Shown: positions 3,001 to 64,000 of the stretch, piece after piece
Layout: every line of letters begins with the position of its first letter
Position numbering within the stretch: position 1 is the first letter of the stretch
Assembly (NCBI GenBank): GCA_963742415.1
Contig: CAVULX010000002.1
Location: forward strand, 64,001-128,000
Length of the DNA: 64,000 nt
From: an uncultured Parachlamydiaceae bacterium
Lineage (GTDB): Bacteria > Chlamydiota > Chlamydiia > Chlamydiales > Parachlamydiaceae
Direction: 5' to 3'
Translations under genes and position numbers: made by a program
The notes under the pieces: model-generated
Databases searched by the model: none
What the model saw: the letters and a program-made list of their open reading frames with translations, nothing else
Told to the model about the DNA's origin: nothing

Positions 3001-6000
3001 CTCAAGTTTTTAGCCGTTTTCGGGATAAAAAATATATCAATGTCCAAGCATTAAATCTTTCTGAGCTCCACAATTGCATGAAGCCGTATTTAGAGGGATA
3101 TCCCCCCATTGAGCCGGAGCGTTTGAAACCTGAAGAATTTAAAGAATACTTTGCCACGTATTATTCATTAGCTAGGGAAGATTTTCCCTATCTCGATCAA
3201 GACTTTATGAGACCCCACCACCCTACCAAACAGCAATTAATCAGGCTGCTTAAATTTCATAAAGGGGGGTGGGATAAACAAACAGAAGTGTTGGTATTTA
3301 TTCTCCAAGCCGTGCTGGCTTATCCCTCCTCTTTTCCACCTACAGCTGAATTATTATCCGCTCATAAAACAGCGTCAAACTCAGCATCAGATCAAAAAAA
3401 GAATGCATGGCATGAATTATTTGTTTCGCTAAATGACAAAGCTTTTTTAAGTTATTTGGCCATGGAATACATTGAGCCGCTGTACCGGTGCCTCCTATCA
3501 TCTTCCCTTCTTCTGTCAGCCCATGTACATTTTTCCGAAGCTATTCCTGAGGAACTTCTTTCAATCCCCTATTTGGCCCCTTTGATAAAAATTGCAACTA
3601 CTACAACAAAAGATATTTCGAGTGTCTTATTTGCCGATAAAACGGCAAAACTCCTCTATCCCATTACACCAAATATTGGGATGGAAATCATTGCTTTGAT
3701 AGAAAAAAGGGATATTTCCTATATCATATCCTTTATTTTGAAAATTTTTCTAACATGGTTAGTTTTAGTAATTCTAGAGAAAACTACCCTTAAAACAATA
3801 AGTAGGGCTGCAAAAATAACTTCCATTGCGAATTCAGCTCTTATTCCCATCACTGGCGCCGCATCTCAAAGCCATCTCTTTACATTAGCAGGAGCCGGAA
3901 CAGCTAAATACTTCGCATGTAAAAAGCTCCAAATGCCATTAGAGTGGCACCAGCTCCTTCCTTGTCCAGCCTTAACTGTTCCCCTTTTGCACCTAGCAGG
4001 CAAATCATATCATCTCTTATCGAAATCAAAACAGGCGAATATCATCAAAACCCAAGAGAAAAAGCAACACAATTCTGCCGACTTCTCGGCATTAAATTGC
4101 GATGAAAATCTCTTTAATACCTTCTTCAAAAAACTTTTTTCTCTTGCATTCGTAGAAAATACCTCTCAAAGCATTCCAACAGAAAAAATTGTACAGAAAA
4201 TTCAGTTAAAAAATGGAGTCAATGCGATTGTGAAAGATCGGATCCAACGGGTCAATGACAGCATCGAAGCCTTTTACAAGAAGACAACGGGTATCCTCTC
4301 TTCCTACGAACTTACCAAACCTGGAGCCCTAGCCGATATCTACATCCACCTGCAAACATTTTATTTCTCCTTGTCCAGCCATCTCAAAGAGGAAAAAGCC
4401 CTTTTGCTCTCAACATTGAATCTGTCAAAACGGGGAAAGACTCAAAATGAAATAACATTGCCCCAAGTTCAAAATTATATCGAAAAAAGTACTTTTGGCT
4501 CTTTGGGTAAAGAAATCTGCTTGTCGGATGCTGAGCTACCCAAAATCGAACTGGCCATTGGAAGGCTCCATTTAAAAACTTCCCGCTTGCAACAAATCGA
4601 GCGTCTCCTCGAGTTTTTTAATCTACTTTTTAAACTATCGCCCGAATCCAATTGGGAAAAATACTATGAAACCGTCGAAGCAATTGCTATCGAACTCAGC
4701 AACAAAACCGGCTTCAGCCTAGACAAAAACCCTTCCAAGCTCACAAGATATAATTTGCAATTTGAAGCTGGCTCAGGCAATTTACTATGGGAACATCAAA
4801 CCAATAACAGAAAAAAAGTTCTCTACGACTATCCTGGCAATGTCGTCACGGAAGAACCTCCAGGCAGCGGAAAAACCCATTATGCTCTTCCTCTTACGAT
4901 CGCTCATGAACTCAACGGCCATCAGCTTGTCCTCTCCATCGCCCCCCGCCAATTAGCCGGCGATAATCAGCCTAAGATCAATTCCCAGCTGAATACTATT
5001 TTCAATAAGAGATCTTATGCCCAATCCTTCCATAGAGATATATGGCTAAATAAAAAAAATCTTGAATCTCTTGTGATCCTATTTACACAATCCAGGGAGG
5101 TGGGAGAAGCCATCCAAATCACTAAAGAAGATATTCAAACTTTACGCGCCCTTTTGGATGACAGATTATACAACTACTTTTACAAAATCGAATGCAAGAA
5201 TTCATCTGAAAAAGAATGTTTGATCCTTCTCCACAAAATTCTAAATGAATTCTATTCCCATGGGCTAGCCATCATCGACGAATCCCACGAAGCCTATCGC
5301 CATCGGCATCAATTAAGTTTCACTGTCGGCCTCCCCCAAAGGATCAACAAAGACTTTTATGTCGTGATGGAGGCCACCGCCCGCATTTTAATGCGTGATC
5401 GTGATCTAAAAAAAGCGATCAAAGAAAATAAGCTCTATAAAGTCGATCGATCTTCCTATAATACTACCATCAAGCCACGCCTGGCCAAAGCCATGAGCCA
5501 ATATTGGCGGTTTAACATTACCGATCCCGCCCGACAAAAAGAATTTATCGCTTTTGTATGCGACCAAGCTGAGGAAATCCCCTCATGGATCGCAAATTCC
5601 CCTTTGTTATATCAACAAATTTCTTTAGTCAAAGGGATCCTAGGGATCTTATTTCCCATGAATTTTAAAAATATGGCCAATGTCGACTTCATGGCTTCAA
5701 AAAAGGGGAATGGTGAATTCGCACGCCCAAGCGATGGAAACAGCCATGTAATCGAACAGGATTCCCTTCAAAATCCTTACGAAACTATGGTGAAGACCAT
5801 GTTGATGTTGTTTACAAAAGGTCTTTCCAAAGAGCAGTTCCGGCAACTCCTAACAATATTGCATGAAAGAGCCTCTAAAGAAATCAAGGACAACAAACTC
5901 CTTTTTAAAGATTCCAAAGTATTCAAAAAATATGGAAAAAGCCTTCCCCAGCAATTTATGCAAAAAAATTGGAGCGATCATGACTTTAAAGTCTCTTATA

Positions 6001-8168
6001 GAAAATTGCGGCGGGATCCTGATGCTTCCCTTTTATATATCCGTTATCATATCTGGAAGCAGATCCTCTATTGGAAAAAATCGATCCAAATTACGGCGCA
6101 AGATTTTTCCATGTTATTCCATAGGCAAATTTCTTCCACAGGAACCCCCTTTAACGATGGAACATATCCGGCTTGGATAAAAATGCTGCGGGATCCTACG
6201 ACCATCGGAGAGCTCTTGCACATCATCTACCAAAAATGTCCCGAGAATGGTATTCATGTCCTCAAATCCAATGTTCCTAAAAAAATCCTGGCAGAAATCT
6301 TATCCAATTACTTTGCCGCCGGCACCCAGTTTTCAGCGATCATCGATGGTGGGGCTCAATTCACCGGTCTAAGCAACGAAAAAGTGGCGCGCATCATCAT
6401 GAAGCACTGTGATAAAAACAGGGAGGATATCAAAGCAGTGAAATTTTATAAGGAAGATGAAACCGGAAAGGAAAAGGTCTTTTGCTTTGTCAAAGGAAAC
6501 CCTCTTCCAGTTCCCGAGGCTTCTGCTCCTTTTGATCCAAAAATCTGCATCACATATTACGATCAATGCCACGGCTTCGGGGCAGATATTAAGCAGCTAG
6601 GCGATGGCTTGGTAACAATAGGCCCCAATCACCCTTTATACCGATGGCTTCAAGAACTCTTTCGGATCCGAGGCCTAAAAAAGCAGCAGCGTTTGAAGAA
6701 AGTTAAAGAAATTGATTTAAATTTCCCAACTCAACGCATTCACCTTTGTATGACCCCCGACATACAGAGGTTAATCATGGGGATGGCATTCGACGCTGTC
6801 AACGTCCCCACACCCACTCTCCCTGAAATTGTCGAATATGCTGTTCATAATGAAGCTGCCATCGCCGAAGAGGAACACTTCCCCTCAGCATGCAGAAAAG
6901 TCCTTATGGCCGTCAAGAAAGCAATCTACGAAAAAATTATTCTAACACCTTCAGAGAAATTTAAGGTCTGGAGCGGGATTTGGAAACAATTCGAAGGTTT
7001 ATTCGTCAATGAGATCGAAGATGATCCCGCCAAGCTTTTTGGTTTAGTAAAGGACAACCCAGACTCAAAAAAAGCCTTGTTAGAAGCTGCGAATGAAGCT
7101 TACGAGATAGTTTCCTCAAGCTCATTATTTACAAAAGAGGAAAAAGAAAAATTAAAAGATGAAATATCGAATTTACCTTTGCCCGTGTTAAATGATACTG
7201 TCACTATTTGGAGAAAAGGAAAAAATGGCGCTATTAAATTGTCCGCCTTGGATAGTCTTGAAACCTCTCAAACGGTTCAAACAAGCAATGAAGCCAACGA
7301 AGCCGCCAATGAAACAAATGAAACTGAAAATCAAAACGAACATCAACTCCAAAACCAGCAGCTTCTGCCCCAAGATAAATTCAACATGTCCCTATTCCAA
7401 GAGCGTGATTGGCCTGAAATAAAAGACCCCTCATCCATCGATTGGCTTAAAATCAGTTCCCCAAAATGCAAATCCCGATTCTTCCTTTCGGAATCATCCC
7501 TTATGGGGTTGCGCAAAAAGACAACATGCCGATTTTATTTGGCTCAAGATTTAATCGCCGACGCCAAAGCGGAAGTGATTAGCAAAGCCGCCGAATATTT
7601 TGACGATAGGCTGTGGATTCCTAATAATTTCGTGGCTCGAAAAGTTGCTTGGGGAGGTTTTTCACGTGAATATCCCTTCGACATAGGAAGCAAAGGTCAA
7701 TTCCGACTCAATACCGTTCTGATCCATTTCGTCGAGAAGGATCAAGGTCTTCACGAAGTTTTATCTATGGGGCCTTTATCTACACGAGACACTGGGCTGT
7801 GGCGAAAAAAGCTTTCGCGCAACCCCTCCTACAATTGGGCTGATAAAAAAGTCAAAACAGTCCTTTGGGATGTGCATTCTCAATCTATCCTCGCAGGATG
7901 CCCAATCGATCAAAATGGCCTACGACGTAATGAAGACCTGTTATTACTCGTTGGCCAATTGAAATTGTTAGATGGAGACCCCGAAATATCAAAAGAAAAA
8001 AAAGCAATGTCCCATTGGCTTGCCCAAGAAAACATCAATGCTGAAATTGTGAGAAGCGCTTTTGAAGCCATCCATTGGCAAAGGGGGCGCTTACCTTATC
8101 CCAGTTCCCCGGCAGACAAACTCTTCAGCAAAATGACTCCTAATCATCCTTTCGAAGAAGAGATCTAA
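1..8168 (+). CDS. Giant (>2719 aa, probably 5'-partial) protein with a C-terminal SF2-helicase-like P-loop region (DUF3638-like)
   Basis: Frame is open to the window edge. Motifs in order: PPGSGKT (Walker A), IIDESHE (DExx), SSTGTP, IIDGGAQF, YYDQCHGFGADIK, QELFRIRGL, then an E/N/Q-rich linker. Confidence 0.6.
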   Translation, partial: SLLKLHTLLCQNINPDWLLSPANFTNPKLMQPPLYPPNCTMSREVCFSKISYYVDDFSVLNYSCPLFSSLESGFSPCLKWPQQNEMLILDPKACEDEPHVTHCSNNQQHTNVTTLFQNAYPEIEILEIAGKTPSERIIRLMNYLQKHKESLNLSSNSSSSLHLLVEAILFAPGALKEQIQHSSQFPQAIGKCFAELLQHFEKTNQLKNIIWLADLGLRTKRYCEYYEKKTSDFPDFNSLLRRFLNSKDESLDPFFHTLYARSFGFPKKGSLCHPIEPVIAFLNAWILLPHESAIPTKLGMNIYAFFIEEFSRWLPTIEQILNIPLHRDSILNALAKKLDWTLKDPDSKYWKKMPYNWLCFYNANICFDFEKPSFSTNYFHEADPFSNVSTKFLLKKTKQNHLVKRLVGNSISKPWKEVAPCQFQSEDNRFLIYFSNVSKGEIIILQNWKKAWYKPVEFTYSSEYFNPSLLKKLKVKSVENLNFWSNGSGPIKKLLIQNKDDHGTFLILRYNPSQPENFLRPGLKGSSSLSSLTAHAVPQNQYIDGLKPLIRFSPANKISAKASPGQNSLSEIVLENRKLHFDIKKNSGSQEIASSREFLNFHIAPLQSHPVLQHISSYLVLESPGGRKKVLIDKKQWLTGIASRLTFLAGPFERYCLDLFAQQEGFISDEYFTFEIVEEGSGKSSLMSSDPAALGFLLILYICQGEKNEANLICQKLEWLYNSQKVPITAWDSISLLAFIPIEFEGIGPIRRRLFSAFELNRLRFMDNPKPPKKEPEIKKKENELKLKDRIDSNIKSKDNLDCPPKKSAYDHLFSLFDFFQEDANSNKSKTPSDPGNDLKKGSEPNQSSPLLAKLPENCPSFLRNIAVAGSILIDLRQHLSNPQYPFSTTQELFLFKCAFHQLEIILRDQTGSSDDVLEFFDAVGWDTVIEATCFSPGLSKRYRTLKKKAGINDSLISTLFNGLICLLTTSSGINQLLPGNTKYGHLPWNQKGGFLGTLSQVFSRFRDKKYINVQALNLSELHNCMKPYLEGYPPIEPERLKPEEFKEYFATYYSLAREDFPYLDQDFMRPHHPTKQQLIRLLKFHKGGWDKQTEVLVFILQAVLAYPSSFPPTAELLSAHKTASNSASDQKKNAWHELFVSLNDKAFLSYLAMEYIEPLYRCLLSSSLLLSAHVHFSEAIPEELLSIPYLAPLIKIATTTTKDISSVLFADKTAKLLYPITPNIGMEIIALIEKRDISYIISFILKIFLTWLVLVILEKTTLKTISRAAKITSIANSALIPITGAASQSHLFTLAGAGTAKYFACKKLQMPLEWHQLLPCPALTVPLLHLAGKSYHLLSKSKQANIIKTQEKKQHNSADFSALNCDENLFNTFFKKLFSLAFVENTSQSIPTEKIVQKIQLKNGVNAIVKDRIQRVNDSIEAFYKKTTGILSSYELTKPGALADIYIHLQTFYFSLSSHLKEEKALLLSTLNLSKRGKTQNEITLPQVQNYIEKSTFGSLGKEICLSDAELPKIELAIGRLHLKTSRLQQIERLLEFFNLLFKLSPESNWEKYYETVEAIAIELSNKTGFSLDKNPSKLTRYNLQFEAGSGNLLWEHQTNNRKKVLYDYPGNVVTEEPPGSGKTHYALPLTIAHELNGHQLVLSIAPRQLAGDNQPKINSQLNTIFNKRSYAQSFHRDIWLNKKNLESLVILFTQSREVGEAIQITKEDIQTLRALLDDRLYNYFYKIECKNSSEKECLILLHKILNEFYSHGLAIIDESHEAYRHRHQLSFTVGLPQRINKDFYVVMEATARILMRDRDLKKAIKENKLYKVDRSSYNTTIKPRLAKAMSQYWRFNITDPARQKEFIAFVCDQAEEIPSWIANSPLLYQQISLVKGILGILFPMNFKNMANVDFMASKKGNGEFARPSDGNSHVIEQDSLQNPYETMVKTMLMLFTKGLSKEQFRQLLTILHERASKEIKDNKLLFKDSKVFKKYGKSLPQQFMQKNWSDHDFKVSYRKLRRDPDASLLYIRYHIWKQILYWKKSIQITAQDFSMLFHRQISSTGTPFNDGTYPAWIKMLRDPTTIGELLHIIYQKCPENGIHVLKSNVPKKILAEILSNYFAAGTQFSAIIDGGAQFTGLSNEKVARIIMKHCDKNREDIKAVKFYKEDETGKEKVFCFVKGNPLPVPEASAPFDPKICITYYDQCHGFGADIKQLGDGLVTIGPNHPLYRWLQELFRIRGLKKQQRLKKVKEIDLNFPTQRIHLCMTPDIQRLIMGMAFDAVNVPTPTLPEIVEYAVHNEAAIAEEEHFPSACRKVLMAVKKAIYEKIILTPSEKFKVWSGIWKQFEGLFVNEIEDDPAKLFGLVKDNPDSKKALLEAANEAYEIVSSSSLFTKEEKEKLKDEISNLPLPVLNDTVTIWRKGKNGAIKLSALDSLETSQTVQTSNEANEAANETNETENQNEHQLQNQQLLPQDKFNMSLFQERDWPEIKDPSSIDWLKISSPKCKSRFFLSESSLMGLRKKTTCRFYLAQDLIADAKAEVISKAAEYFDDRLWIPNNFVARKVAWGGFSREYPFDIGSKGQFRLNTVLIHFVEKDQGLHEVLSMGPLSTRDTGLWRKKLSRNPSYNWADKKVKTVLWDVHSQSILAGCPIDQNGLRRNEDLLLLVGQLKLLDGDPEISKEKKAMSHWLAQENINAEIVRSAFEAIHWQRGRLPYPSSPADKLFSKMTPNHPFEEEI

Positions 8169-25710: not shown

Positions 25711-28337
25711 ATGTCTCCCAATTTCACAGATGCTGTTGCTCAAGCTATTCAAACAGCTTTTAACGAGGCACAACAACGAAAAAATACAGAAGTGACCGAA
25801 AACCACCTCCTTTATGCTTTTTTAGAAGATCCTCAAGACCTTTTTACTTCCGTCCTCACAAGTTTGCAAGGCAACATTTCAAAGCTATTAACCGAAGTCC
25901 AACAAGCCTTAGATAAATTGCCCACCTTTTCTACAGATAGCTCACAAGCCCCTGTTCCCTCTCGCAACTTCCAGAAGCCGGATCGCAACCGCCCAAGGCA
26001 TAGCCAAACAATGGAATGACACCTACATCAGCACCGACCACTTCCTCATCTCTTATTGGAAAAATGGAGGCGACCCTTTCGCAAGCTGGAAAAAACAATC
26101 AGGGATCACTCTCAAACAATTAGAAGATTATATCAAAAAAATCCGAGGCGACCGTCATATGGATTCTCCCAACGCCGAAGCAAGCCTTCAAACTCTCGAA
26201 AAATACTGCAAAAACCTTACAGCTCTCGCCACAGAAGGAAAACTCGATCCTGTCATCGGCCGGGATGAAGAGATCCGCCGCACCATGCAAGTCCTGAGCC
26301 GCCGCACAAAAAACAATCCGATGTTGATCGGAGATCCAGGAGTCGGAAAAACAGCCATTGCCGAAGGACTTGCCCCCCGGATCATCTCAGGGAGATGTCC
26401 CCGATTCTCTCAAAAATAAACAGCTACTCGCCTTAGATATGGGCAGCCTGATTGCAGGAACAAAATATCGCGGGGAATTTGAAGAGCGGTTGAAAGGGAT
26501 TCTGCACGATATCGAGAAAAGCGAAGGGCAAATCATCCTTTTCATCGATGAAGTCCATACTCTGATCGGCGCCGGAGCCACTGAAGGCGCCATGGATGCT
26601 GCCAACCTGCTCAAACCTGCCCTGGCCCGCGGAACGCTGCATTGCATTGGCGCCACCACTCTCAATGAATACCAAAAACACATTGAAAAAGATGCTGCCC
26701 TAGAACGGCGCTTTCAACCCGTCATGGTCAATGAACCCAGCGTCGAAGATTCGATTGCCATTTTGCGCGGCCTACGGGAACGATATGAAATCTTCCATGG
26801 TGTCCGCATCACCGAATCTGCTCTCCATGCCGCTGTCTTCCTCTCTTCCCGCTACATTACCGATCGGCATCTTCCCGATAAAGCGATCGATTTGATCGAT
26901 GAAGCTGCTAGCTTGATCCGTATGCAGCTGGGAAGCCGCCCTCTGCCCATCGATACCAAAGAACGGGAACTCGCCAGCTTAATTGTCGAACAAGAAGCCC
27001 TGAGGCGCGAAAACACACCCAGCTGCTAAAGCTGAAGCGGAAAAACTAGAAACTCGGATCGCTCAAATTAAAGAAGAACTCACCCTTCTGCGGCAACAAT
27101 GGGAACAAGAAAAAAAGATGATCGAAGCTCTCAAAGAGAAAAAAAATCAAACTGGAGCAGCTGCGTTTCCAAGAAGAAGAACTGGAACGAAAAGCCGATT
27201 ACAACAAAGTCGCCGAATTGCGCTACAACACCATCCCCAAACTTGCAAAAAGAGATCGAAGAGACAGAATCAGGAACTCAACAAAAAGCCCAACCGCCTT
27301 CTGCAAGAAGAGGTGGATGAAAACCTCATCGCCCATATCGTCTCCAAATGGACAGGAATTCCTGTCAGTAAAATGCTCGAAGGCGAAGCCGAGAGACTTC
27401 TGCATCTTGGAAAAGGAACTTGGAAAAACGGGTTGTCGGCCAAGATTTAGCCATCAAAGCAGTCAGCGAAGCCATCCGCCGCTCCCGCTCAGGTCTAAGC
27501 GACCCAACCAGACCTATCGGAGTCTTTCTCTTCATCGGACCCACAGGCGTCGGTAAAACAGAACTTGCCAAAGCGCTAGCAGAACAGCTTTTCAATCAAG
27601 AAGAGGCCATGATCCGCCTTGACATGTCGGAATACATGGAAAAACATAGCGTCTCCAAACTGATCGGCTCCCCTCCAGGCTATGTCGGCTATGAAGAAGG
27701 GGGACAACTGACAGAAGCCCTGCGCCGCCGCCCCTATTCCGTCGTGCTCTTCGATGAGATTGAAAAAGCCCACCACGATGTCTTCAATATCTTGCTGCAA
27801 ATTTTTGACGATGGACGCTTAACCGATAGCAAAGGACGGATCGTCAATTGCAAAAATGCCCTCTTCATCATGACTTCAAATCTTGGCTCAGAGCAACTGC
27901 TGGATAAACTTGGCCATCCGCAATCCAAAATAACCAAAGACTCCATCATGGCTGTCTTGGATCCCATCATCAAGATCCATTTCCGCCCTGAATTTATCAA
28001 CCGCCTCGATGATATCCTCCCCTTCCTGCCTCTGCAAAAAGAAGACATGGAAAAAATCGTCAACATCCAACTTAACCATCTAACCCGCCGCCTGAGAGAT
28101 CGGGAAATTGGTCTAAAATGGACAAATGATGCCGCCGATCACCTCGCAGAAGAGGGATACGATCCCATTTTTGGCGCGCGCCCCCTCAAACGCTACATCC
28201 AACAAGAAGTCGTCAACATGCTCTCTTTTGCTATCCTAGAAGGAAAAATCCCTTCAGACAGCGTGGTGGAACTAAAACTTGAAAAGAAAAAATTAGTTTT
28301 CTCCGTCGTCGGCGGAAAACAGACAACCTCTTCATAA
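25711..28337 (+). CDS. clpB: ATP-dependent chaperone ClpB; split by several apparent indels
   Basis: Fragments in successive frames: [46 protein letters not shown], middle coiled coil, [12 protein letters not shown] and [10 protein letters not shown]. Confidence 0.88.
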
Positions 28338-31756: not shown

Positions 31757-31795
31757 AAAGGGCAGGCACTGTTACAGTGCCTGCCCTTTTTTTTT
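31757..31795 (+). terminator. Rho-independent terminator of omcAB
   Basis: AAAGGGCAGGCACTGT-T-ACAGTGCCTGCCCTTT followed by a T run. Confidence 0.9.
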
Positions 31796-31816
31796 CTTGA
31801 TGACAATTTTAACCAC

Positions 31817-31977
31817 AGACACAGAGAAGGAACAGGATAAGCAAGATCGTAAACGGCAGGATAAGTAGGATAAAAAAAGTCTTAACTTAATCATATCCGC
31901 ATATTCTTACTCTTTATTCAATATCTTGCTTATCCTGCCGTTTACGATCTTGCTTATCCTGTTCCTTCTCTGTGTCT
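31817..31977. repeat. Fold-back element: perfect 49-bp inverted repeat around a 63-bp spacer
   Basis: 31817-31865 is the exact reverse complement of 31929-31977. Confidence 0.9.
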
Positions 31978-38440: not shown

Positions 38441-38770
38441 TCAGGGTAAAAGAGCATTAAATCCTTTTCGACGAATAACATTTAGCAATACAAGTACCGC
38501 GCCTGAAGGTTCTTTCACCCCCCTTTCCAATTGTGAAATATAGCCAACTGTTAAATTAAGATAACTAGCAAATGCTGCTTGACTGAGATGTGTTTTTTCT
38601 CTCAATATCCGAATTTCTTCACTACTTATCGGATCTATTTTCGGGAGGTTCCCTTTTAGATGCCGCATTGTGATTTTTTCATACTCTTCCATATCAATAA
38701 TTTCGCCTTCTAGCATATCTTTTGCCGTCTCGAGAATGGCTTTTTTTAATCGACTAGATTTTTTAGTCAT
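38441..38770 (-). CDS. XRE-family HTH antitoxin (HigA-like)
   Basis: EIRILREKTHLSQAAFASYLNLTVGYISQLERGVKEPSGAVLVLL; overlaps the toxin stop codon. Confidence 0.85.
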   Translation of the reverse strand: MTKKSSRLKKAILETAKDMLEGEIIDMEEYEKITMRHLKGNLPKIDPISSEEIRILREKTHLSQAAFASYLNLTVGYISQLERGVKEPSGAVLVLLNVIRRKGFNALLP

Positions 38771-39131
38771 AATCTACCTCTTGTAATAGACCATTAGAAA
38801 GGGAGCGATTGAGTTCTTTATCGCTTACTTTGAACCATGCAGCTGCAACTTTTTTTAAAGAAATTAATTCTTCATCATCAATATTTTCACGTTCGTTTTT
38901 TGCAAATCCATAGAGAAATATAGCTATTTTGTTTTTTTGATAAGCAATGAGAGTCCGATAACCTGATGATCGCCCATGTCCTTTTCGAGCAATTCTCAGT
39001 TTGATGACACTTCCTCCTAAATCCGCATCTATAAGCCCGCATTCCCGTTTTATAGCTTCGCACAAAGATTCATCCTCAATTTGTACTCGTTTTGCATAAC
39101 GCGCAAACCATGTCGTTTTAAAAACTCGCAA
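38763..39131 (-). CDS. Type II RelE/ParE-family toxin (HigB-like, toxin-first operon)
   Basis: RVFKTTWFARYA, DADLGGSVIKLRIARKGHGRSSGYRT and FLYGFAKNERENI. Confidence 0.85.
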   Translation of the reverse strand: MRVFKTTWFARYAKRVQIEDESLCEAIKRECGLIDADLGGSVIKLRIARKGHGRSSGYRTLIAYQKNKIAIFLYGFAKNERENIDDEELISLKKVAAAWFKVSDKELNRSLSNGLLQEVDYD

Positions 39132-39142
39132 AATAATCCTCG

Positions 39143-39183
39143 CTTGTAAACAGAGTGTAACACTATGAACTATAGTTTACAAG
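39143..39183 (-). promoter_or_regulatory. Promoter/operator of the RelE-XRE module
   Basis: Minus strand TTGTAA-N17-TACACT, bracketed by the IR CTTGTAAAC/GTTTACAAG. Internal palindromes AACTATAGTT and AGTGTAACACT. Confidence 0.65.
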
Positions 39184-39224
39184 AGGGAATTCATGCACGG
39201 ACGTTAAATCAATCTTTCTCTTAA

Positions 39225-39404
39225 AAAGCGGACTGGTTTTGTAAACCTCAATTCATCGATTATCTGGCTGACGATGGCGATCGAGCAGAGTGGGCTCTGT
39301 TCATTAATAAAATGCATGGTATACCTGCGAGTCCCCATGTTCAGAAAACCCTAAATGAGGTCAGAAAAAGACTCATCTTCTTCCTGCAAAATGCAAAAAA
39401 ATAA
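39225..39404 (+). pseudogene. 3' remnant of a paralog of the 43482-44611 gene
   Basis: Translates DRAEWALFINKMHGIPASPHVQKTLNEVRKRLIFFLQNAKK*, compared with DRAEWYKIVNSFDKPDPPHIQKIKKEIRERLIFFLQKANIK* at 44611. Confidence 0.7.
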
Positions 39405-39711
39405 ATCGCGAAAACTTAAGCTGATTGATCAAAGTTGACCATCAGAGATTTTCTTCAAAAGTTTAGGCCTTGTTGCCTAAATCACCACAGCCGGTGGGTT
39501 CACAGAGAAAAGGTGAGAGCGGGAGGTCAGGCCGCTTTCCTCTCACTTTGTGACATTCATAATTTAATCGAGTATATAATCCCCTTATGATTTATGCATT
39601 CGCGAGAGCTTTAACGCCAGCCGAAAGTGCAGAAAAACCCAAAGCTCAGTTTAGTATCACTTTGTGGATGGTTCAATCATTAGTGCTGAAAAGCTGTTTA
39701 CTAATCCAGAT

Positions 39712-39759
39712 TTGACAATAATCATGTCAGTATGTACGATAAATACATACATACTGACA
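39712..39759 (+). promoter_or_regulatory. abiE promoter with palindromic operator
   Basis: TTGACA-N17-TACGAT. Perfect 12-bp IR TGTCAGTATGTA (39725-39736) / TACATACTGACA (39748-39759). Confidence 0.75.
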
Positions 39760-39766
39760 AGGCACA

Positions 39767-40408
39767 ATGACTAATATAATGATACAACTCCGAAGCAAAT
39801 CTCAAGGCGAAGAGATCGACTATACTTTTGTCATGGATTGTCTTAAGGACTATAAATCTCCTAGGGCTAAGTTAACTACACTTCTCCAAAAAGGAGATTT
39901 AATCCGAGTCAAAAAAGGCCTCTACCTGTTTGGTTCTGACTACCGAAAAGGACCATACAGCCCAGAAATCATGGCGAATAAGATTTATGGCCCCTCCTAT
40001 GTTTCTAGGGAATATGCCCTTGCTTATTACGGGTTAATTCCCGAACATGTTGCAGAAGTCACAAGCATTTCTACAAAACGCGCTCGTAATTTTGATACCC
40101 CAATCGGCAGGTTTAGTTACGCCCATCTTCCACCTAAACTCTATCAAGTCAATTTCAATCTAGTTCCAGTAAGAAATAACGAAACTGCACTCCTAGCTAC
40201 AGCTGAAAAGGCACTTGCCGATCTTCTTTATTTTCGCAATGATCATCCTGAGACGTTGAATGAACTCATTGACCTGCTTTTCGATGACCTGCGTCTTGAT
40301 GATGCACTAGTCAGTCGGATGCGGATTGGGATGTTCACTGAAATCCTGAAGGCTGGAGGGTCGCCAACGCTTAAACTTATAATTGAATGGTTAAAGGGAC
40401 AAAAATGA
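39767..40408 (+). CDS. Type IV TA antitoxin, AbiEi-like transcriptional regulator
   Basis: LIRVKKGLY, YGPSYVSREYALAYYGLIPE and ATAEKALADLLY motifs. Confidence 0.85.
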   Translation: MTNIMIQLRSKSQGEEIDYTFVMDCLKDYKSPRAKLTTLLQKGDLIRVKKGLYLFGSDYRKGPYSPEIMANKIYGPSYVSREYALAYYGLIPEHVAEVTSISTKRARNFDTPIGRFSYAHLPPKLYQVNFNLVPVRNNETALLATAEKALADLLYFRNDHPETLNELIDLLFDDLRLDDALVSRMRIGMFTEILKAGGSPTLKLIIEWLKGQK

Positions 40409-41274
40409 ATCCGGCCTTAGAGACAATATTACGAAGATACAAATGTGAGACACGTTCTCAATACGAGCGAGCATTAAAAGAGATTCTTCAGGAATTGGCA
40501 CTTGTTGGTCTATGGAGGGCACATTTTTTCGAGCATGCGGCGTTCTATGGAGGCACAGCACTTCGCATTCTCTATGGACTTGACCGCTTTTCTGAAGATT
40601 TGGATTTTACACTCCTTGCGCCAAATCCAAAATACTCTCTAGAACCCTATCATGAAGCTATCACCAAAGAACTCACATCATATGGTTTTTCTGTGGAAAT
40701 CGATACTAAAGATAAAAGTTGGGTGACACCTATTCGTTCTGCTTTTATCAAGACAAACACCCTCGGCGAACTCTTGAAAATAGGAATTCCCAGAAACCTC
40801 GTTCGTGGATTACATCCCGATATGATTCTGAAAATTAAATTGGAGGTCGATACAGATCCTGCACCCGCTTATGATTTCGAAACGCGATTCCTCTTGACAC
40901 CCTTTAGCGTCGGTATCCGCACTGTGGTATTGACAGATATCTTTGCGGGAAAAATGCATGCCGTCCTTTTCCGGGAATGGAAAGGGCGTGTGAAAGGACG
41001 TGATTGGTATGACTGGTACTGGTTAGTGCGTCAAAAAACTATTTTACCATTACAACGTCTAGCAATTTACATGCGGCGAGCAGGCACTCTCCAAAATAAT
41101 GAGATCTTGACAAGGGAACGATTTGAACAACTAATGCACGATAAAATCGAGCGCGTGGATTTCGCCTCTGCGAAAGCAGATATGCAGCCCTTTATTACTG
41201 ATTCTGCGCAGATTGCCGACTGGTCGGTTGATCTTTTCCGCCATTTGTTGATGCAAACAAAAACAATTGAATGA
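40405..41274 (+). CDS. Type IV TA toxin, AbiEii nucleotidyltransferase
   Basis: FYGGTALRILYGLDRFSEDLDF, KIKLEVD, GKMHAV and KGRDWYD motifs. ATGA overlap with the antitoxin stop. Confidence 0.88.
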   Translation: MNPALETILRRYKCETRSQYERALKEILQELALVGLWRAHFFEHAAFYGGTALRILYGLDRFSEDLDFTLLAPNPKYSLEPYHEAITKELTSYGFSVEIDTKDKSWVTPIRSAFIKTNTLGELLKIGIPRNLVRGLHPDMILKIKLEVDTDPAPAYDFETRFLLTPFSVGIRTVVLTDIFAGKMHAVLFREWKGRVKGRDWYDWYWLVRQKTILPLQRLAIYMRRAGTLQNNEILTRERFEQLMHDKIERVDFASAKADMQPFITDSAQIADWSVDLFRHLLMQTKTIE

Positions 41275-41327
41275 AGGGTTAATAACAGCTTGATAAAATC
41301 TATACAAATCTGATAATATCTACTCAT

Positions 41328-41948
41328 ATGAGTAGATTTGTTAAGATTGGAAAAGCAGCAGAAATATTAGGTGTTTCTGTTCAAACTTTGAGGCGATGGG
41401 AATTGCAAGGATCACTTAATCCCGACCGCCGAAGTTCCGGTAAAACACGATATTATGATTTAGACAAGCTATTAGGATTAAAATTCCCTAAAAGCGATCT
41501 AACAATTGCCTATGCGAGAGTTTCAAGCCACGACCAAAAAGAAGATTTAGTAAGACAAGCCAAATTGCTTTCTTCCTTCTGTACCTCACATGGGTGGGAT
41601 CATGAAGTCATTCAAGATCTTGGATCCGGAATGAATTATTATAAAAAGGGCTTGAAAAAGCTTTTAGATTTGATTTTAGACAAAAAAATCCGAAGATTGG
41701 TTTTAACTCATAAAGATCGCTTGCTTCGATTTGGGGCAGAGCTTATATTTGCACTCTGTCAAGCACGTCAAGTTGAAGTTGTCATCATCAATCAAGGTGA
41801 TGATGTTTCTTTTGAAGAAGAACTTGCCAAAGATGTATTGGAGATTATTACAGTATTTTCTGCAAGATTATATGGGGCGAGAAGCCACAAAAATAAAAAG
41901 CTTGTTGAAGCAGCTAGGGTTTTAATTAATGGCAACGCTCACACATAA
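41328..41948 (+). CDS. tnpA: IS607 serine recombinase/transposase with N-terminal MerR-type HTH
   Basis: KAAEILGVSVQTLRRWE, YARVSSHDQKEDL, DLGSGMNY, DRLLRFG and FSARLYG. Confidence 0.93.
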   Translation: MSRFVKIGKAAEILGVSVQTLRRWELQGSLNPDRRSSGKTRYYDLDKLLGLKFPKSDLTIAYARVSSHDQKEDLVRQAKLLSSFCTSHGWDHEVIQDLGSGMNYYKKGLKKLLDLILDKKIRRLVLTHKDRLLRFGAELIFALCQARQVEVVIINQGDDVSFEEELAKDVLEIITVFSARLYGARSHKNKKLVEAARVLINGNAHT

Positions 41949-43107
41949 AATACGCTTAGATTTTACCTGCAAGCAAGAAAAATATTTTCGCAAAGCCTGT
42001 GGAATAGCCCGCTTTGCATGGAATTGGGCCCTGGCAAAATGGGAAGAAATATATAAAGCTGGTGACAAACCAAATGCCTTAGAGCTTAAGAAAGAATTTA
42101 ATCGATTAAAAGAAAAAGAATTTCCTTGGGTATATGAAGTTACCAAATATGCATGTCAGCAGCCTTTTATTTACCTTCAAAGAGCTTTTCAATCGTTTTT
42201 TGAGAAAAAGACAAAATATCCGAGATATAAAAAAAAGGGAATTCACGACAGCTTTTACATAGGAGGAGATCAAGTTAAAATTATAGGAAAACAGGTAAAG
42301 ATTCCAAACCTAGGATGGGTTCGGTTGAGGGAATCTTTGCGATTTGAAGGCAAAATCAATGGTGCAACAATTTCAAGAGTAGCAGATTATTGGTTTATCA
42401 GTGTTAGTGTAGAGACAGATCAACGGCCTTCGCCATGCAAAAGCCAAGCAAGCGTGGGAGTAGATTTAGGTATTAAAAATTTGGCCACACTTTCAGATGG
42501 AAAAGTCATTCCAAATAATCAACCATTGAAACAGCAATTATATCGATTAAAACGCTACCAAAGGCGCTTAACGAAAAGACAAAAAGGCTCGCTAAATTGG
42601 CAAAAAGCAAAGAAGCGAGTGGCAAGATTGCATTACAAGATTGCATGCAATAGAAATGATGCATTGCATAAATTGACAACGATGCTGACTAACAATTATG
42701 GGAACATTAGTATCGAGGATCTAGAAATATCAAAAATGGTAAAAAATAAAAGATTATCAAGGCATATTCTAGATGGAGGCTGGTATGAATTTAGAAGGCA
42801 GCTTCAATACAAATCTGTGCTAAGAGGCAATAAAATTTTTGTTGCAGACAGATGGTATGCCTCATCAAAAAAATGTTCTTCATGTGGACATTATAAAGAA
42901 GATCTCGCTTTGTCAGAACGGGTGTATAACTGCATGGAATGCCAATTAGAAATCGATCGCGATTTGAATGCAGCTAAGTGCCTTGAAAAACTTATTAGTA
43001 CGGTAAGCTTTACCGGAATTAACGCCTGCGGACAAGACGGCTCTGTAATAATGCTCAAAACATCATTACAACCAGCTTGGATGAAGCAGGAACTAAGCCC
43101 TGTATAG
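41929..43107 (+). CDS. tnpB: RNA-guided endonuclease TnpB
   Basis: RuvC D-E-D intact (GVDLG, IEDL, DRDLNAA) and Zn finger CSSC...CMEC. Confidence 0.93.
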   Translation: MATLTHKIRLDFTCKQEKYFRKACGIARFAWNWALAKWEEIYKAGDKPNALELKKEFNRLKEKEFPWVYEVTKYACQQPFIYLQRAFQSFFEKKTKYPRYKKKGIHDSFYIGGDQVKIIGKQVKIPNLGWVRLRESLRFEGKINGATISRVADYWFISVSVETDQRPSPCKSQASVGVDLGIKNLATLSDGKVIPNNQPLKQQLYRLKRYQRRLTKRQKGSLNWQKAKKRVARLHYKIACNRNDALHKLTTMLTNNYGNISIEDLEISKMVKNKRLSRHILDGGWYEFRRQLQYKSVLRGNKIFVADRWYASSKKCSSCGHYKEDLALSERVYNCMECQLEIDRDLNAAKCLEKLISTVSFTGINACGQDGSVIMLKTSLQPAWMKQELSPV

Positions 43108-43251
43108 AAATGTACAGATTTTAGAAAGCGGAATCTGTTCTGTTAATCCAACGAGCCATTTTTAATCCTTTTGATAATGTTCATGAAAATGAACGTTATT
43201 TTGCTTAACGTTAAGAATTACGAACTTTATGCGAATGAGCAAATAAATTAA

Positions 43252-49566: not shown

Positions 49567-49679
49567 TTCTTTTTTGTTTTACCGGGAGACGAAACGCAAA
49601 TCCAAGAACTCTATTCAAGATGGCATGCGGGGCCAAAGTTTTAATCGTCCGATAAGCATTTGTTTGGCAGTTCGAATGT
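49567..49679 (-). repeat. Displaced copy of the ribF 3' end plus downstream DNA (direct repeat of 52464-52576)
   Basis: 113 bp with 5 mismatches; encodes the same IRTAKQMLIGRLKLWPRMPS*. Confidence 0.9.
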
Positions 49680-49936
49680 ATTTCAGATCAAACATATATT
49701 CAAGTAATTGGCTTTTTAATTCGCTTTTGATTAATACAATAAATTTTAAGTAAAAAACAAATGAATTAAATTTAATTCTAAATTAAAACTCACAAATAAA
49801 AAGAATATGTTTCCAATAAATCTTTCAAGTTCAAGCGATAGCTTTAAAAATATTTGTACCCAGCTAAGCCGCTTTGGAGAAAAAGGGTTAATAACAGCTT
49901 GATAAAATCTATACAAATCTGATAATATCTACTCAT

Positions 49937-50557
49937 ATGAGTAGATTTGTTAAGATTGGCAAAGCAGCAGAAATATTAGGTGTTTCTGTTCAAACTTTGA
50001 GGCGGTGGGAATTGCAAGGATCACTTAAGCCCGACCGCCGAAGTTCTGGTAAAACACGATATTATAATTTAGACAAGCTATTAGGATTAAAATTCCCTAA
50101 AAGCGATCTAACAATTGGCTATGCGAGAGTTTCAAGCCACGACCAAAAAGAAGATTTAGTAAGACAAACCAAATTGCTTTCTTCCTTCTGTACCTCACAT
50201 GGATGGGACCATGAAATCATTCAAGATCTTGGATCCGGAATGAATTATTATAAAAAGAGCTTGAAAAAGCTTTTAGATTTGATTTTAGACAAAAAAATCC
50301 GAAGATTGGTTTTAACTCATAAAGATCGCTTGCTTCGATTTGGGGCAGAGCTTATATTTGCACTCTGTCAAGCACGCCAAGTTGAAGTAGTCATCATCAA
50401 TCAAGGTGATGATGTTTCTTTTGAAGAAGAACTTGCCAAAGATGTATTGGAGATTATTACAGTATTTTCTGCAAGATTATATGGGGCGAGAAGCCACAAA
50501 AATAAAAAGCTTGTTGAAGCAGCTAGGGTTTTAGTTAATGGCAACGCTCACACATAA
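49937..50557 (+). CDS. tnpA: IS607 serine recombinase/transposase
   Basis: Seven amino-acid differences from copy 1; catalytic YARVSS intact. Confidence 0.93.
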   Translation: MSRFVKIGKAAEILGVSVQTLRRWELQGSLKPDRRSSGKTRYYNLDKLLGLKFPKSDLTIGYARVSSHDQKEDLVRQTKLLSSFCTSHGWDHEIIQDLGSGMNYYKKSLKKLLDLILDKKIRRLVLTHKDRLLRFGAELIFALCQARQVEVVIINQGDDVSFEEELAKDVLEIITVFSARLYGARSHKNKKLVEAARVLVNGNAHT

Positions 50558-51716
50558 AGTACGCTTAGATTTTACCTGCAAGCAAGAAAAATATTTTCGC
50601 AAAGCCTGTGGAATAGCCCGCTTTGCATGGAATTGGGCCCTGGCAAAATGGGAAGAAATATATAAAGCTGGTGGCAAACCAAATGCCTTAGAGCTTAAGA
50701 AAGAATTTAATCGATTAAAAGACAAAGAATATCCTTGGGTATACGAAGTTACCAAATATGCTTGTCAACAGCCTTTTATTTACCTTCAAAGAGCTTTTCA
50801 ATCGTTTTTTGAGAAAAAGACAAACTATCCGAGATATAAAAAAAAGGGAATTCACGACAGCTTTTACATAGGAGGAGATCAACTTAAAATTATAGGAAAG
50901 CGGGTGAAGATTCCAAACCTAGGTTGGGTTCGGCTGAGGGAATCTTTGCGATTTGTAGGCAAAATCAATGGTGCAACAATTTCAAGAGTAGCAGATTATT
51001 GGTTTATCAGTGTTAGTGTAGAGACAGATCAACGGCCTTCGCCATGCAAAAGCCAAGCAAGCGTGGGAGTAGATTTAGGTATTAAAAATTTGGCCACACT
51101 TTCAGATGGAAAAGTCATTCCAAATAATCAACCATTGAAACAGCAATTATATCGATTAAAACGCTACCAAAGGTGCTTAACAAAAAAACAAAAAGGCTCG
51201 CTAAATTGGCAAAAAGCAAAGAAGCGAGTGGCCAGATTGCATTACAAGATTGCATGCAATAGAAATGATGCATTGCATAAATTGACAACGATGCTGACTA
51301 ACAATTATGGGAACATTAGTATCGAGGATCTAGAAATATCAAAAATGGTAAAAAATAAAAGATTATCAAGGCATATTCTAGATGGAGGCTGGTATGAGTT
51401 TAGAAGGCAGCTTCAATACAAATCTGTGCTAAGAGGCAGTAAAGTTTTTGTTGCAGATAGATGGTATGCCTCATCAAAAAAATGTTCTTCATGTGGAAAT
51501 TATAAAGAAGATCTCCCTTTGTCAGAACGGGTGTATAACTGCATGGAATGCCAATTAGAAATCGATCGCGATTTGAATGCAGCTAAGTGTCTTGAAAAAC
51601 TCATTAGTACGGCAAGCTTTGCCGGAATTAAAGCCTGCGGACAAGACGGCTCTGTAATAATGCTCAAAACATCATTACAACCAGCTTGGATGAACCAGGA
51701 ACTAAGCCCTGTATAG
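50538..51716 (+). CDS. tnpB: RNA-guided endonuclease TnpB
   Basis: RuvC D-E-D and Zn finger intact. Confidence 0.93.
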   Translation: MATLTHKVRLDFTCKQEKYFRKACGIARFAWNWALAKWEEIYKAGGKPNALELKKEFNRLKDKEYPWVYEVTKYACQQPFIYLQRAFQSFFEKKTNYPRYKKKGIHDSFYIGGDQLKIIGKRVKIPNLGWVRLRESLRFVGKINGATISRVADYWFISVSVETDQRPSPCKSQASVGVDLGIKNLATLSDGKVIPNNQPLKQQLYRLKRYQRCLTKKQKGSLNWQKAKKRVARLHYKIACNRNDALHKLTTMLTNNYGNISIEDLEISKMVKNKRLSRHILDGGWYEFRRQLQYKSVLRGSKVFVADRWYASSKKCSSCGNYKEDLPLSERVYNCMECQLEIDRDLNAAKCLEKLISTASFAGIKACGQDGSVIMLKTSLQPAWMNQELSPV

Positions 51717-52049
51717 AAGTGTACAGATTTTAGGAAGCGGTGTGAACGTATTCAAATAGCAAAAACTGATTTAGGGTATATTCCATGTGCGGTATCTTCA
51801 TCAAAAGATTGGATAGAGAAGATCTTATCTATTTTTCGATATAAAACGAGAGACCGCCGTTTAAAAGAAGTAGCCAATTTTTCTTTGAATTGGCTGAGAG
51901 CTCATGCTTTACAATATAACAAAGAATTACAATATAACAAAGAATTCCATAGTCAAATTACTGAGATTAAAAATTTGCGACCATTAATGACAAAAGCGAA
52001 TCTTGGTGACGATTTTGATGCTCTTATCTCTTCAAATGTTGATGATATA

Positions 52050-52387
52050 TTAACTGACAGCAATACAACCTTTACGTCTGAATATTCCAATTCGAGAACG
52101 AGGTTTTTTTACCCGAATTTCTACTTCACATCCTAAAATGGCAAGATAGTGCAATAAGATATCAGTGCTAAAAACGGACAGCCGACCGGAAACCAATAAG
52201 GAAACCTTGGTTGGGTAATTCCTAGTTTTTTAGCTACCTCTTGTTGAGATAAATTACTTGCTTTGATTAAACTTCCAACTTCATGTAAAAGTTTTGCTTT
52301 CGCGAGCAATTCATCCGGCTCGTTTAATCCAAGATCAGCAAAAATATTGCTTGTTGTAACTTCATAGTCTTTGCTTTGTTTACTCAT
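52050..52387 (-). pseudogene. XRE HTH antitoxin with one frameshift
   Basis: SNIFADLGL...LSQQEVAKKLGITQP, continuing in another frame as VSLLVSGRLSVFSTDILLHYLAILGCEVEIRV...IAVS*. Confidence 0.7.
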
Positions 52388-52470
52388 TGGATTTTCCTCC
52401 ACTACGCTTCCAATTTTTATATAATCCCTCAGCTAATTTAAGCCGCGAACGAATGAGATCCATTTCTTTT
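52380..52470 (-). pseudogene. C-terminal remnant of a Gp49/HigB-like toxin
   Basis: Translates KEMDLIRSRLKLAEGLYKNWKRSGGKSNE* and overlaps the antitoxin start; the 5' part is missing. Confidence 0.5.
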
Positions 52471-52511
52471 TTGTTTTACCGGGAGACGAAACGCAAATTC
52501 AAGAACTCTAT

Positions 52512-53468
52512 TCACGATGGCATGCGGGGCCAAAGTTTTAATCGGCCGATGAGCATTTGTTTGGCTGTTCGAATGTCTTTACTAATTTGGGTTTGGAGTT
52601 CTGGAATACTTGCAAACCGAATTTCTGGACGGATAAACTGCACGAAAACAACTTCCATAAAACTGCCATCTTTGATCTCTTCATGGGGATCCAACAGATG
52701 AATTTCAAGCAGAGGGATTTGGTCTTGCCTTACGGTAGGTGCAACCCCTAAGTTAGCAACACCACGCAAAATATTGCCATTTTGAATCACTTTGACAGCA
52801 TATACCCCCAACGGAGGCACGCACAATGTCTCCACATGGCAATTGATCGTAGGGAATCCAATTTTTTTACCCAACCCCTGCCCGCTCTTCACCGGAACAT
52901 ACAAGGAATACTCTCTTCCTAACATTTGACCCACAGCTTGTAAATTTCCTTGCTTGATCAGTTCCCGGATTTTGCTGCTCGACACCTTTTCATTTTCAAC
53001 GACAACTTTATCGAGATAGGTTAAATCGAACTTCATTGTTGCAGCTAGCTTTAACATCGAGCTTTTATCGCCCGTTCGATCCTTTCCCATGGTAGCGTCG
53101 GGACCCAAAATAAGCTGAATAAAAGGGCATTTAGACCGCACTTTTTTTAAAAACTCTTCGGCTGTCTGCAAAGAAAATTCTTTGGTGAAAGTTAATAAAA
53201 TCAGATCATCGATCCCTGCCTCTTCTATTAACTTAAGCCGATGTTCTAAAGTGCACAAAAAAGATAACTTTAGCTCTGGCTTTAAGACCTCCAGAGGATG
53301 GTTGGCAAAGGTGATGACGACAGTAGCTCCTTGCACGGGCCTCATCACTTCTTTAAGCTTGGAGAGAATTGCCTGATGGCCTCGATGAACACCATCAAAA
53401 TTGCCTATAGTAAGTGCAATGTCACTCGCTGCATTCTCATATGTATCTAAATCATAATAAATTTTCAT
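52512..53468 (-). CDS. ribF: Bifunctional riboflavin kinase/FAD synthetase
   Basis: IGNFDGVHRGHQ, VSSSKIR, GKKIGFPTIN, GVAPTV and LEIHLLD motifs. Confidence 0.93.
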   Translation of the reverse strand: MKIYYDLDTYENAASDIALTIGNFDGVHRGHQAILSKLKEVMRPVQGATVVITFANHPLEVLKPELKLSFLCTLEHRLKLIEEAGIDDLILLTFTKEFSLQTAEEFLKKVRSKCPFIQLILGPDATMGKDRTGDKSSMLKLAATMKFDLTYLDKVVVENEKVSSSKIRELIKQGNLQAVGQMLGREYSLYVPVKSGQGLGKKIGFPTINCHVETLCVPPLGVYAVKVIQNGNILRGVANLGVAPTVRQDQIPLLEIHLLDPHEEIKDGSFMEVVFVQFIRPEIRFASIPELQTQISKDIRTAKQMLIGRLKLWPRMPS

Positions 53469-63105: not shown

Positions 63106-63909
63106 ATGCCTTCATCCCCTAAAACACTGATCCTCAAATTTGGCGGCGCTTCTGTTGCCACCCCTGCCCATTTTTCAAATATCGCTAACATCGTTTTGGC
63201 CCGCAGGCAACATTATCCACACATTGGGGTTGTAGTAAGCGCCATGGGAAACACCACAGATCAACTCATTGCCTTAGCCAAAGAAGTTCATCCCAATCCC
63301 CCCCGCCGGGAGTACGATATGCTTGTCTCCGTAGGTGAACGGATCAGCATTTCCCTTTTAGCGATGGCTCTCGCAGCTCATGGACATGAGGCTGTCAGCT
63401 TTACCGGCAGCCAGTCAGGCATCATCACATGCAATCGGCACACCGATGCAAAAATTATGGATGTCCGCCCCTATCGGCTCATACCCCACCTTGAGGCCGG
63501 CCGCATTGTCATCGTCGCCGGATTTCAAGGGGTCAGTAAAAGCGGCGAAATCACTACCCTAGGCCGCGGTGGTTCTGATACCAGCGCTGTGGCTCTTGGA
63601 ATAGCTTTAAAAGCGGAAATAGTTGAATTTTATAAAGATGTCGAGGGGATATATTCTGAAGATCCCAAAATGAACCCTGAAGCAGCTTTGCAGGATGAAT
63701 TGAGCTATGATGAAGCCTTAGCTATCACAACTGCCGGAGCCAAAGTTCTCCATCCCAGAAGCATCCAATTGGCAAAACGAAATGGAATTCCCCTCTGTGT
63801 TCGCTCTTTCAAACCAAACAATGTCGAAACTAACGCATTGACGGGTACTCTTATTCATAGCAAGTCTGATACCTCCTGCTCTTCTCCCGCTGTTTACGAA
63901 AATGAATAA
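63106..63909 (+). CDS. lysC: Aspartate kinase, catalytic domain only
   Basis: KFGGASV, VVVSAMGNTTDQL, AGFQG, TLGRGGSDTSAV and GAKVLHPRS; no ACT domains. Confidence 0.85.
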   Translation: MPSSPKTLILKFGGASVATPAHFSNIANIVLARRQHYPHIGVVVSAMGNTTDQLIALAKEVHPNPPRREYDMLVSVGERISISLLAMALAAHGHEAVSFTGSQSGIITCNRHTDAKIMDVRPYRLIPHLEAGRIVIVAGFQGVSKSGEITTLGRGGSDTSAVALGIALKAEIVEFYKDVEGIYSEDPKMNPEAALQDELSYDEALAITTAGAKVLHPRSIQLAKRNGIPLCVRSFKPNNVETNALTGTLIHSKSDTSCSSPAVYENE

Positions 63910-63949
63910 AAAAAACAGGATGGGCAGGCATGCCCATCCTGTTTTTTTT
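63908..63949. terminator. Bidirectional Rho-independent terminator
   Basis: A8-CAGGATGGGCA-ggca-TGCCCATCCTG-T8. Confidence 0.9.
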
Positions 63950-64000
63950 GTTATTTTTTAGCGGTTATTTCTGAGGCCTCTTTAACAGGCGAAAAACTTC

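Follow-up and report, generated by a model that had tools for sequence, protein, structure and literature searches.

The window, a stretch of 64,000 nucleotides from an uncultured Parachlamydiaceae bacterium, carries two closely similar copies of a transposable element, and the question raised by this locus is whether these are IS607 elements whose ends, target site and RNA-guided nuclease TnpB can be defined, as a preliminary description had claimed. The copies are located at 41277-43131 and 49886-51740, the second 8609 bp downstream of the first, and each spans 1855 bp from GG to GG, or 1853 bp if one GG is left out. Both are preceded by AAGGG, start with TTAATAACAG and finish with AAGCGG, exactly as described before; their right flanks differ in the way that had been quoted. 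The alignment of the two copies showed 47 substitutions and no gaps, with identity running from 41274 to 43131. The features of both copies are the following:

41274..41278, plus strand: left flank of copy 1, AAGGG; recombination core in the final two G, predicted TAM GGG, possible preference for the A at -4
41277..43131, plus strand: IS607 copy 1, GG to GG, 1855 bp; net insertion 1853 bp, target duplication absent
41296..41321, plus strand: three A(A/T)ATCT motifs in 10-bp phase, predicted TnpA binding sites by analogy with the sites described in PMC6188088
41318..41337, plus strand: 20-bp perfect palindrome with the tnpA start codon (ATG) at its centre
41328..41948, plus strand: tnpA, 206 aa, MerR-type HTH and serine-recombinase domain, YARVSS at residues 62-67
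41929..43107, plus strand: tnpB, 392 aa, RuvC residues D179/E263/D345, zinc finger C316/C319/C335/C338
43106..43121, minus strand: two right-end motifs, AAATCT and ATTTCT
49883..49887, plus strand: left flank of copy 2, AAGGG
49886..51740, plus strand: IS607 copy 2, tnpA 49937-50557 and tnpB 50538-51716, both intact

Every IS607 feature that could be tested is present in the element. TnpA contains the domains PF00376 and PF00239, passes the IS607 transposase model NF033518 (213 bits, cut-off 110) and matches the TnpA structures of ISC1926 and IS1535. The tnpB gene is located directly downstream, its start at 41929 overlapping the tnpA end at 41948, and its product passes the general TnpB model NF040570 (291 bits, cut-off 100). 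Against NF038280 (NCBIfam IS607_TnpB) it scored 254.6 bits, below the cut-off of 350, but this model is narrow and membership of the IS607 family does not depend on it. The residues D179, E263 and D345 and the four zinc-finger cysteines (C316/319/335/338) are present in all four full-length TnpBs of the genome. For tnpA and tnpB, dN/dS was 0.11-0.37 in a comparison of the three intact copies, which differ by few changes, and purifying selection acts on both genes.

The left end holds the hexamers AAATCT, AAATCT and ATATCT at 41296, 41306 and 41316. The repeats, previously described as about 10 bp apart, have a spacing of exactly 10 bp, and they overlap a promoter-like site at 41290-41319. The AGATTT noted before at the right end is present at 43116-43121, together with a degenerate AGAAAT at 43106-43111. 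The termini are otherwise unrelated: terminal inverted repeats are absent, and the short motifs lie at 18/28/38 on the left and at 11/21 on the right. The palindrome at the tnpA start codon folds (-15.5 kcal/mol) in a read-through RNA and not in an RNA starting just behind the left-end promoter-like site, and 5-8 of its 8 pairs are kept across 21 related variants. It may act as a guard against outside transcription or as a TnpA operator.

In the 2.69-Mb genome (about 42% GC) we found five two-ended copies, one left-end fragment and two degenerate left ends; these three remnants measure 29 bp, 166 bp and 234 bp, and the longest stops at a hairpin. The two-ended copies outside the window, with C1 and C4 denoting contigs, are:

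C4:806851-808705: third copy
C1:14444-16297: C1 copy, with a tnpA frameshift
C4:934160-935526: fifth two-ended copy, with an internal deletion at a short repeated sequence

GG is present at both ends of all five two-ended copies, with insertion at GG. The six canonical left flanks read AAGGG three times, GAGGG twice and TGGGG once, so that GGG was found in 6/6, AGGG in 5/6 and AAGGG in only 3/6. Against the background of this genome, G at -3 (25% expected given GG) had a p-value of 3e-4 and A at -4 (5/6; A background 29.5%) one of 0.01, and A at -5 was not enriched (3/5, p = 0.40). Once GGG is fixed, two random genomic GGG sites share both upstream bases about 7% of the time, by arithmetic from the counts. 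Given this figure and the three AAGGG flanks among the six, the fifth base that both window copies share is no more than chance. The preliminary description had derived a TAM of about (A)AGGG from the two window copies. Its GGG core and, in five of six cases, AGGG stood, but the full motif was over-specified, and AAGGG as TAM is not supported. A logo of the genomic left flanks, which had been proposed as a check, thus contradicts it in part: AGGG is missing from one of the six left ends (TGGGG) and AAGGG from three.

Related elements were sought in 400 genomes of the order and in a metagenome collection (genome G117 unscored in part). Of 48 distinct regions upstream of tnpA, the 39 whose 49-bp left end was 60% identical or more were kept and nine were dropped; seven of the 39 came from this genome. 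The 32 related left ends outside this genome carry GG in 31 cases and GGG in 28. A at -4 was found in 18/28 related GGG left ends (p = 1e-4) and A at -5 in 11/18 (p = 0.12), p-values that are overstated since the elements are related, several are paired from one genome and the background is that of this genome. Eight related loci were retrieved, five genomic and three viral, all with at most 65% identity. Of 24 right-end matches, five do not extend to the terminus and each of the other 19 closes with GCGG; the C at -3 of the right end is invariant, and A, T or C occurs as the first base of the guide.

Our best prediction from the flanks and the relatives is that the TAM is GGG, with at most a soft preference for A at -4; a preference for a purine or A at this position is possible, though doubtful. 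Insertion flanks report the preference of TnpA plus selection and not the specificity of TnpB. The leading alternative, tentative as it is, is that TnpB needs a longer TAM, AGGG or RGGG and less likely AAGGG, and that the bias at -4 reflects selection for sites which TnpB can defend. The A at -4 in 5/6 own and 18/28 related GGG flanks, compared with a background of 29.5%, is consistent with it, as is AAGGG being the commonest 5-mer (14/39), and other IS607 TnpBs are reported to use TAMs of 4-5 nt, namely TGGG (bioRxiv 10.1101/2023.11.20.567912) and GAGGG or AGGAG (PMC11061315). However, TGGGG precedes one of the intact full-length copies and GAGGG two of the left ends, the -5 position shows no enrichment, and the nearest tested relative is described as using GGG only (bioRxiv 10.1101/2023.08.09.552727). 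Moreover, a preference for bases upstream of GG may lie with TnpA itself, as reported for the TnpA of CboIStron (bioRxiv 10.1101/2023.11.20.567912). A prediction of the -4 base from TAM-contacting residues was dropped, the alignment to ISFba1 being loose there. Whether the -4 base is set by TnpA preference or by TnpB selection can be examined on natural material, namely the six genomic flanks and the 32 related left ends.

A GGG flank leaves two possible GG cores, and the state of the site before insertion is best seen at the C1 copy. This copy is located inside one arm of a palindromic repeat family (REP-like, 23 arm matches in the genome), and in the intact opposite arm three G stand before nine bases that are identical to those of the right flank. 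The empty site therefore keeps GGG, and the net insertion is 1853 bp without duplication. Less strongly, window copy 2 points in the same direction, as three G are required for the frames on either side to stay in register (41+131 codons); for its spanning or downstream frame no match was found in any of 40 other genomes (40/40). For copy 1, the 3′ ends of AbiEii in genomes G003, G009 and G021 diverge past the stop codon and gave no empty site, and at the fifth two-ended copy the spacers of 29 related loci were too diverged to count G. Six sequencing runs, no RNA run among those listed, had a sampled-word share of 0.05-0.08. Four of them were compared with the locus and corresponded to contigs of relatives; they showed no joint at the element ends and are neutral with respect to excision and expression. 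The window contains long inverted repeats as well (31757-31977 and 63899-63957), which are similar in kind to the palindromic repeat families of the genome.

The surroundings of the copies differ. Copy 1 directly follows the AbiEii stop codon, in an islet with RelE/HTH and AbiEi/AbiEii pairs (38441-41274), and short direct repeats lie around it (39332-39404/44536-44611 and 39652-39698/43487-43533). Copy 2 is part of a 2.9-kb islet (49567-52580). A 117-bp direct repeat (95%), into which the 3′ end of the FAD synthetase gene falls, marks its two borders. Besides copy 2, the islet contains an orphan frame and, on the minus strand at 52133-52387, an HTH_37 gene, which suggests a small integrated element. 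Elsewhere the window carries a type III secretion cluster with CopN adjoining a glucanotransferase, a ClpB-like AAA gene (26358-28337) that appears split over several ORFs, and a 2719-aa ORF (9-8168) with DUF3638 as its sole Pfam match. The secretion cluster with its neighbour would suggest an environmental chlamydia as host. The copy at C4:934160-935526 is located exactly between umuD and umuC (C4:932864-936045), its target AAGGG lying 6 nt before the umuC ATG, as aligned with the start in relatives, at a Shine-Dalgarno-like spacing. All 29 related loci hold umuD and umuC, adjacent in 28 of them.

We also considered a chlamydia-associated IS607 subfamily with an active 392-aa TnpB and its own 4-nt TAM (AGGG/RGGG), a purine-rich preference that would steer insertions to Shine-Dalgarno-like sites and operon junctions; one copy splits umuD and umuC at a likely ribosome-binding site, and one directly follows a stop codon. 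This extension is speculative and we regard it as improbable. If it were true, the TAM would differ from those of the IS607 TnpBs tested so far (GGG, TGGG and GAGGG), and the system would represent a compact editor that recognizes a new G-rich TAM and whose target choice is linked to host gene expression.

The RNA of the right end and the guides were analyzed for the following features:

43007..43131, plus strand: predicted right-end RNA scaffold with an approximate 5′ end, overlapping the last approximately 100 nt of tnpB and ending with GCGG
43132..43151, plus strand: host flank, would-be guide of copy 1 by analogy with studied elements
51741..51760, plus strand: host flank, would-be guide of copy 2 on the same grounds

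The fold of the single right-end sequence was weak (z = -1.48; 13/200 shuffles folded equally well). When 12 right ends were aligned (11 distinct, five from this genome), five helices were obtained over 43007-43129 with 98% of cells paired. In the consensus fold, 6/38 pairs were changed on both sides, a value reached by 0/500 shuffles, and slid controls gave 27-40%; this covariation is scored on a structure that came out of the same alignment, in a region that also encodes protein and with few related sequences. These data are no more than suggestive of a conserved, structured right end. The preliminary description had further held that the nuclease is fully specified by the window. This went too far: the window does not fix the 5′ end of the scaffold, the TnpBs of the two copies differ at 18 residues, and the flanks do not equal TnpB specificity.

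The would-be guides differ between copies, as expected if each guide is the local host flank. For the guides of the five copies, no match beyond a 10-nt seed was found next to GGG elsewhere in the genome, so each guide would be confined to the empty site of its own copy, as is usual. Self-targeting had been considered for the best matches next to GGG, a 10-nt seed for copy 1 and 9 nt with 13/16 for the C1 copy, and was rejected as 34% of random 20-mers have a 9-nt seed match and 3.8% also reach 13/16. At the C1 copy (C1:14400-16400), the opposite palindrome arm about 60 bp away offers GAGGG and a 9-nt seed (13/16) to the element's own guide; this near self-target is probably too short to be cut.

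We favor the reading, with a probability of roughly 0.8, that the locus holds a multi-copy IS607 element of the IS607/ISXfa1 type that works as known relatives do. The IS607 identity, the GG crossover core and the intact TnpB claimed earlier are borne out by the protein models, the ends, the empty site in the palindrome and the relatives, which also support guides taken from the flank. By analogy with these systems, TnpA would bind the phased end motifs and excise a double-stranded circle by exchange across GG, and the circle would be inserted by TnpA at (R)GGG. Transcription through tnpB into the right end would give an RNA that is processed to a scaffold of about 130-145 nt with a guide of 16-20 nt from the host flank. 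TnpB may then cut the scarless empty site, in which the GGG of the left flank has come to lie next to the sequence matched by the guide, and the element would be regained by repair with a sister copy as template. The occupied site would be spared because the right end offers CGG and not GGG.

An unlikely alternative is that the elements are at rest, with TnpB or its RNA poorly expressed or weakly active, and that the GGG pattern reflects the preference of TnpA alone. The four full-length copies differ pairwise at 17-47 positions (1-2.5% divergence) and no pair is identical, so the sequences do not support current mobility; one tnpA frameshift, one internal deletion and three fragments fit the same picture, as do the stops in the related TnpBs of genomes G181 and G007. 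In addition, the TnpA of IS607 alone is described as preferring (G)GG (PMC6188088), and only 23/43 tested IS607 TnpBs are reported to cleave (PMC11061315). However, three copies keep both ORFs and all catalytic residues with dN/dS well below 1, and the right-end C is invariant, which argues against this alternative.

A special IS607 class is highly improbable, even with a weak Rfam match to RAGATH-18 (43025-43092, 23.7 bits, E = 0.22) and a host that is probably an intracellular chlamydia-like bacterium, a plausible route to eukaryotes: the RAGATH-18 score is below the gathering threshold of 44.9 bits, with the match inside the tnpB ORF and the predicted RNA overlapping tnpB instead of lying downstream; an IStron is contradicted by a left end of only 49 bp to tnpA and by the lack of an intron among the six Rfam matches; a pro-Fanzor or Fanzor2, defined for pro-Fanzors by DPG at RuvC-I and a C-terminally shifted glutamate (bioRxiv 10.1101/2023.08.09.552727), by GVDLG at RuvC-I (DLG, not DPG) and the canonical E263 (IEDL); and a nuclease-dead TldR, which has an inactivated RuvC, by the intact triad.

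Among the papers listed for IS607 in chlamydiae and for TnpB with an AGGG TAM, no title or abstract opening dealt with this element. For close relatives, both the mechanism and the discrimination of self by CGG versus GGG have been published before, so the element is a new example and not a new mechanism. Its value is modest and lies in a candidate compact nuclease whose boundaries, scaffold and likely TAM are defined well enough for an assay.

Among more distant systems, RAGATH-18 IS607 TnpBs are reported to have the TAM AGGAG in 18/22 strains and GAGGG in 4/22 (PMC11061315). ISFba1 and these TnpBs resemble our element in size (387 aa there), AG-rich TAMs and the weak RAGATH-18 similarity, but ISFba1 is more distant (156 bits versus 187 for ISDra2), and its RAGATH-18 RNA is described as starting downstream of the ORF (PMC11061315). 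ApmFNuc, a mimivirus Fanzor2 in an IS607 element with an NGGG TAM including AGGG (PMC10530073), shares the IS607 context, whereas our TnpB is without the DPG motif and shifted glutamate described for Fanzors and pro-Fanzors (bioRxiv 10.1101/2023.08.09.552727). The IS607 element CboIStron, with the TAM TGGG, a scaffold ending with UCGG and TnpB-driven retention, is similar in its GG core, NGGG-type TAM and CGG scaffold end (bioRxiv 10.1101/2023.11.20.567912); in contrast, our element has no group I intron, and the preference at -4 is A or G, not T.

The founding member, IS607 of H. pylori, is reported to use a (G)GG target without duplication and to carry short phased direct motifs at its ends (PMC6188088), all of which recur here. 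TnpA and TnpB are 60% and 43% identical, respectively, to those of the H. pylori IS607 copy in phage KHP30T, but the end sequences are different and TnpB has 392 aa versus 419 aa. The right ends of the Xylella and H. pylori elements also finish with CGG. The nearest tested relative that we found is ISXfa1 of Xylella fastidiosa, although a closer one may stand in published TnpB sequence tables. Its TnpB is reported to use a 144-nt scaffold with a 17-nt guide and to cut GGG but not CGG, the natural copies being located at GGG (bioRxiv 10.1101/2023.08.09.552727 = PMC10711439). Our TnpB is 44.7% identical to a Xylella plasmid TnpB over 99% of the query, and the tnpA remnant of the latter is 72% identical over 82 aa; this Xylella protein is probably that of ISXfa1. 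Still, the two TnpBs are unlike at 55% of their residues, the WED loop being one such place (YIGGD here, TLSND in the Xylella protein), and the flanks, unlike those of ISXfa1, lean to A at -4. With ISXfa1 our element shares the tnpA-tnpB order, an RNA (predicted here) overlapping tnpB, a predicted TAM of GGG and not CGG, a CGG right end and insertion into GGG (PMC10711439).
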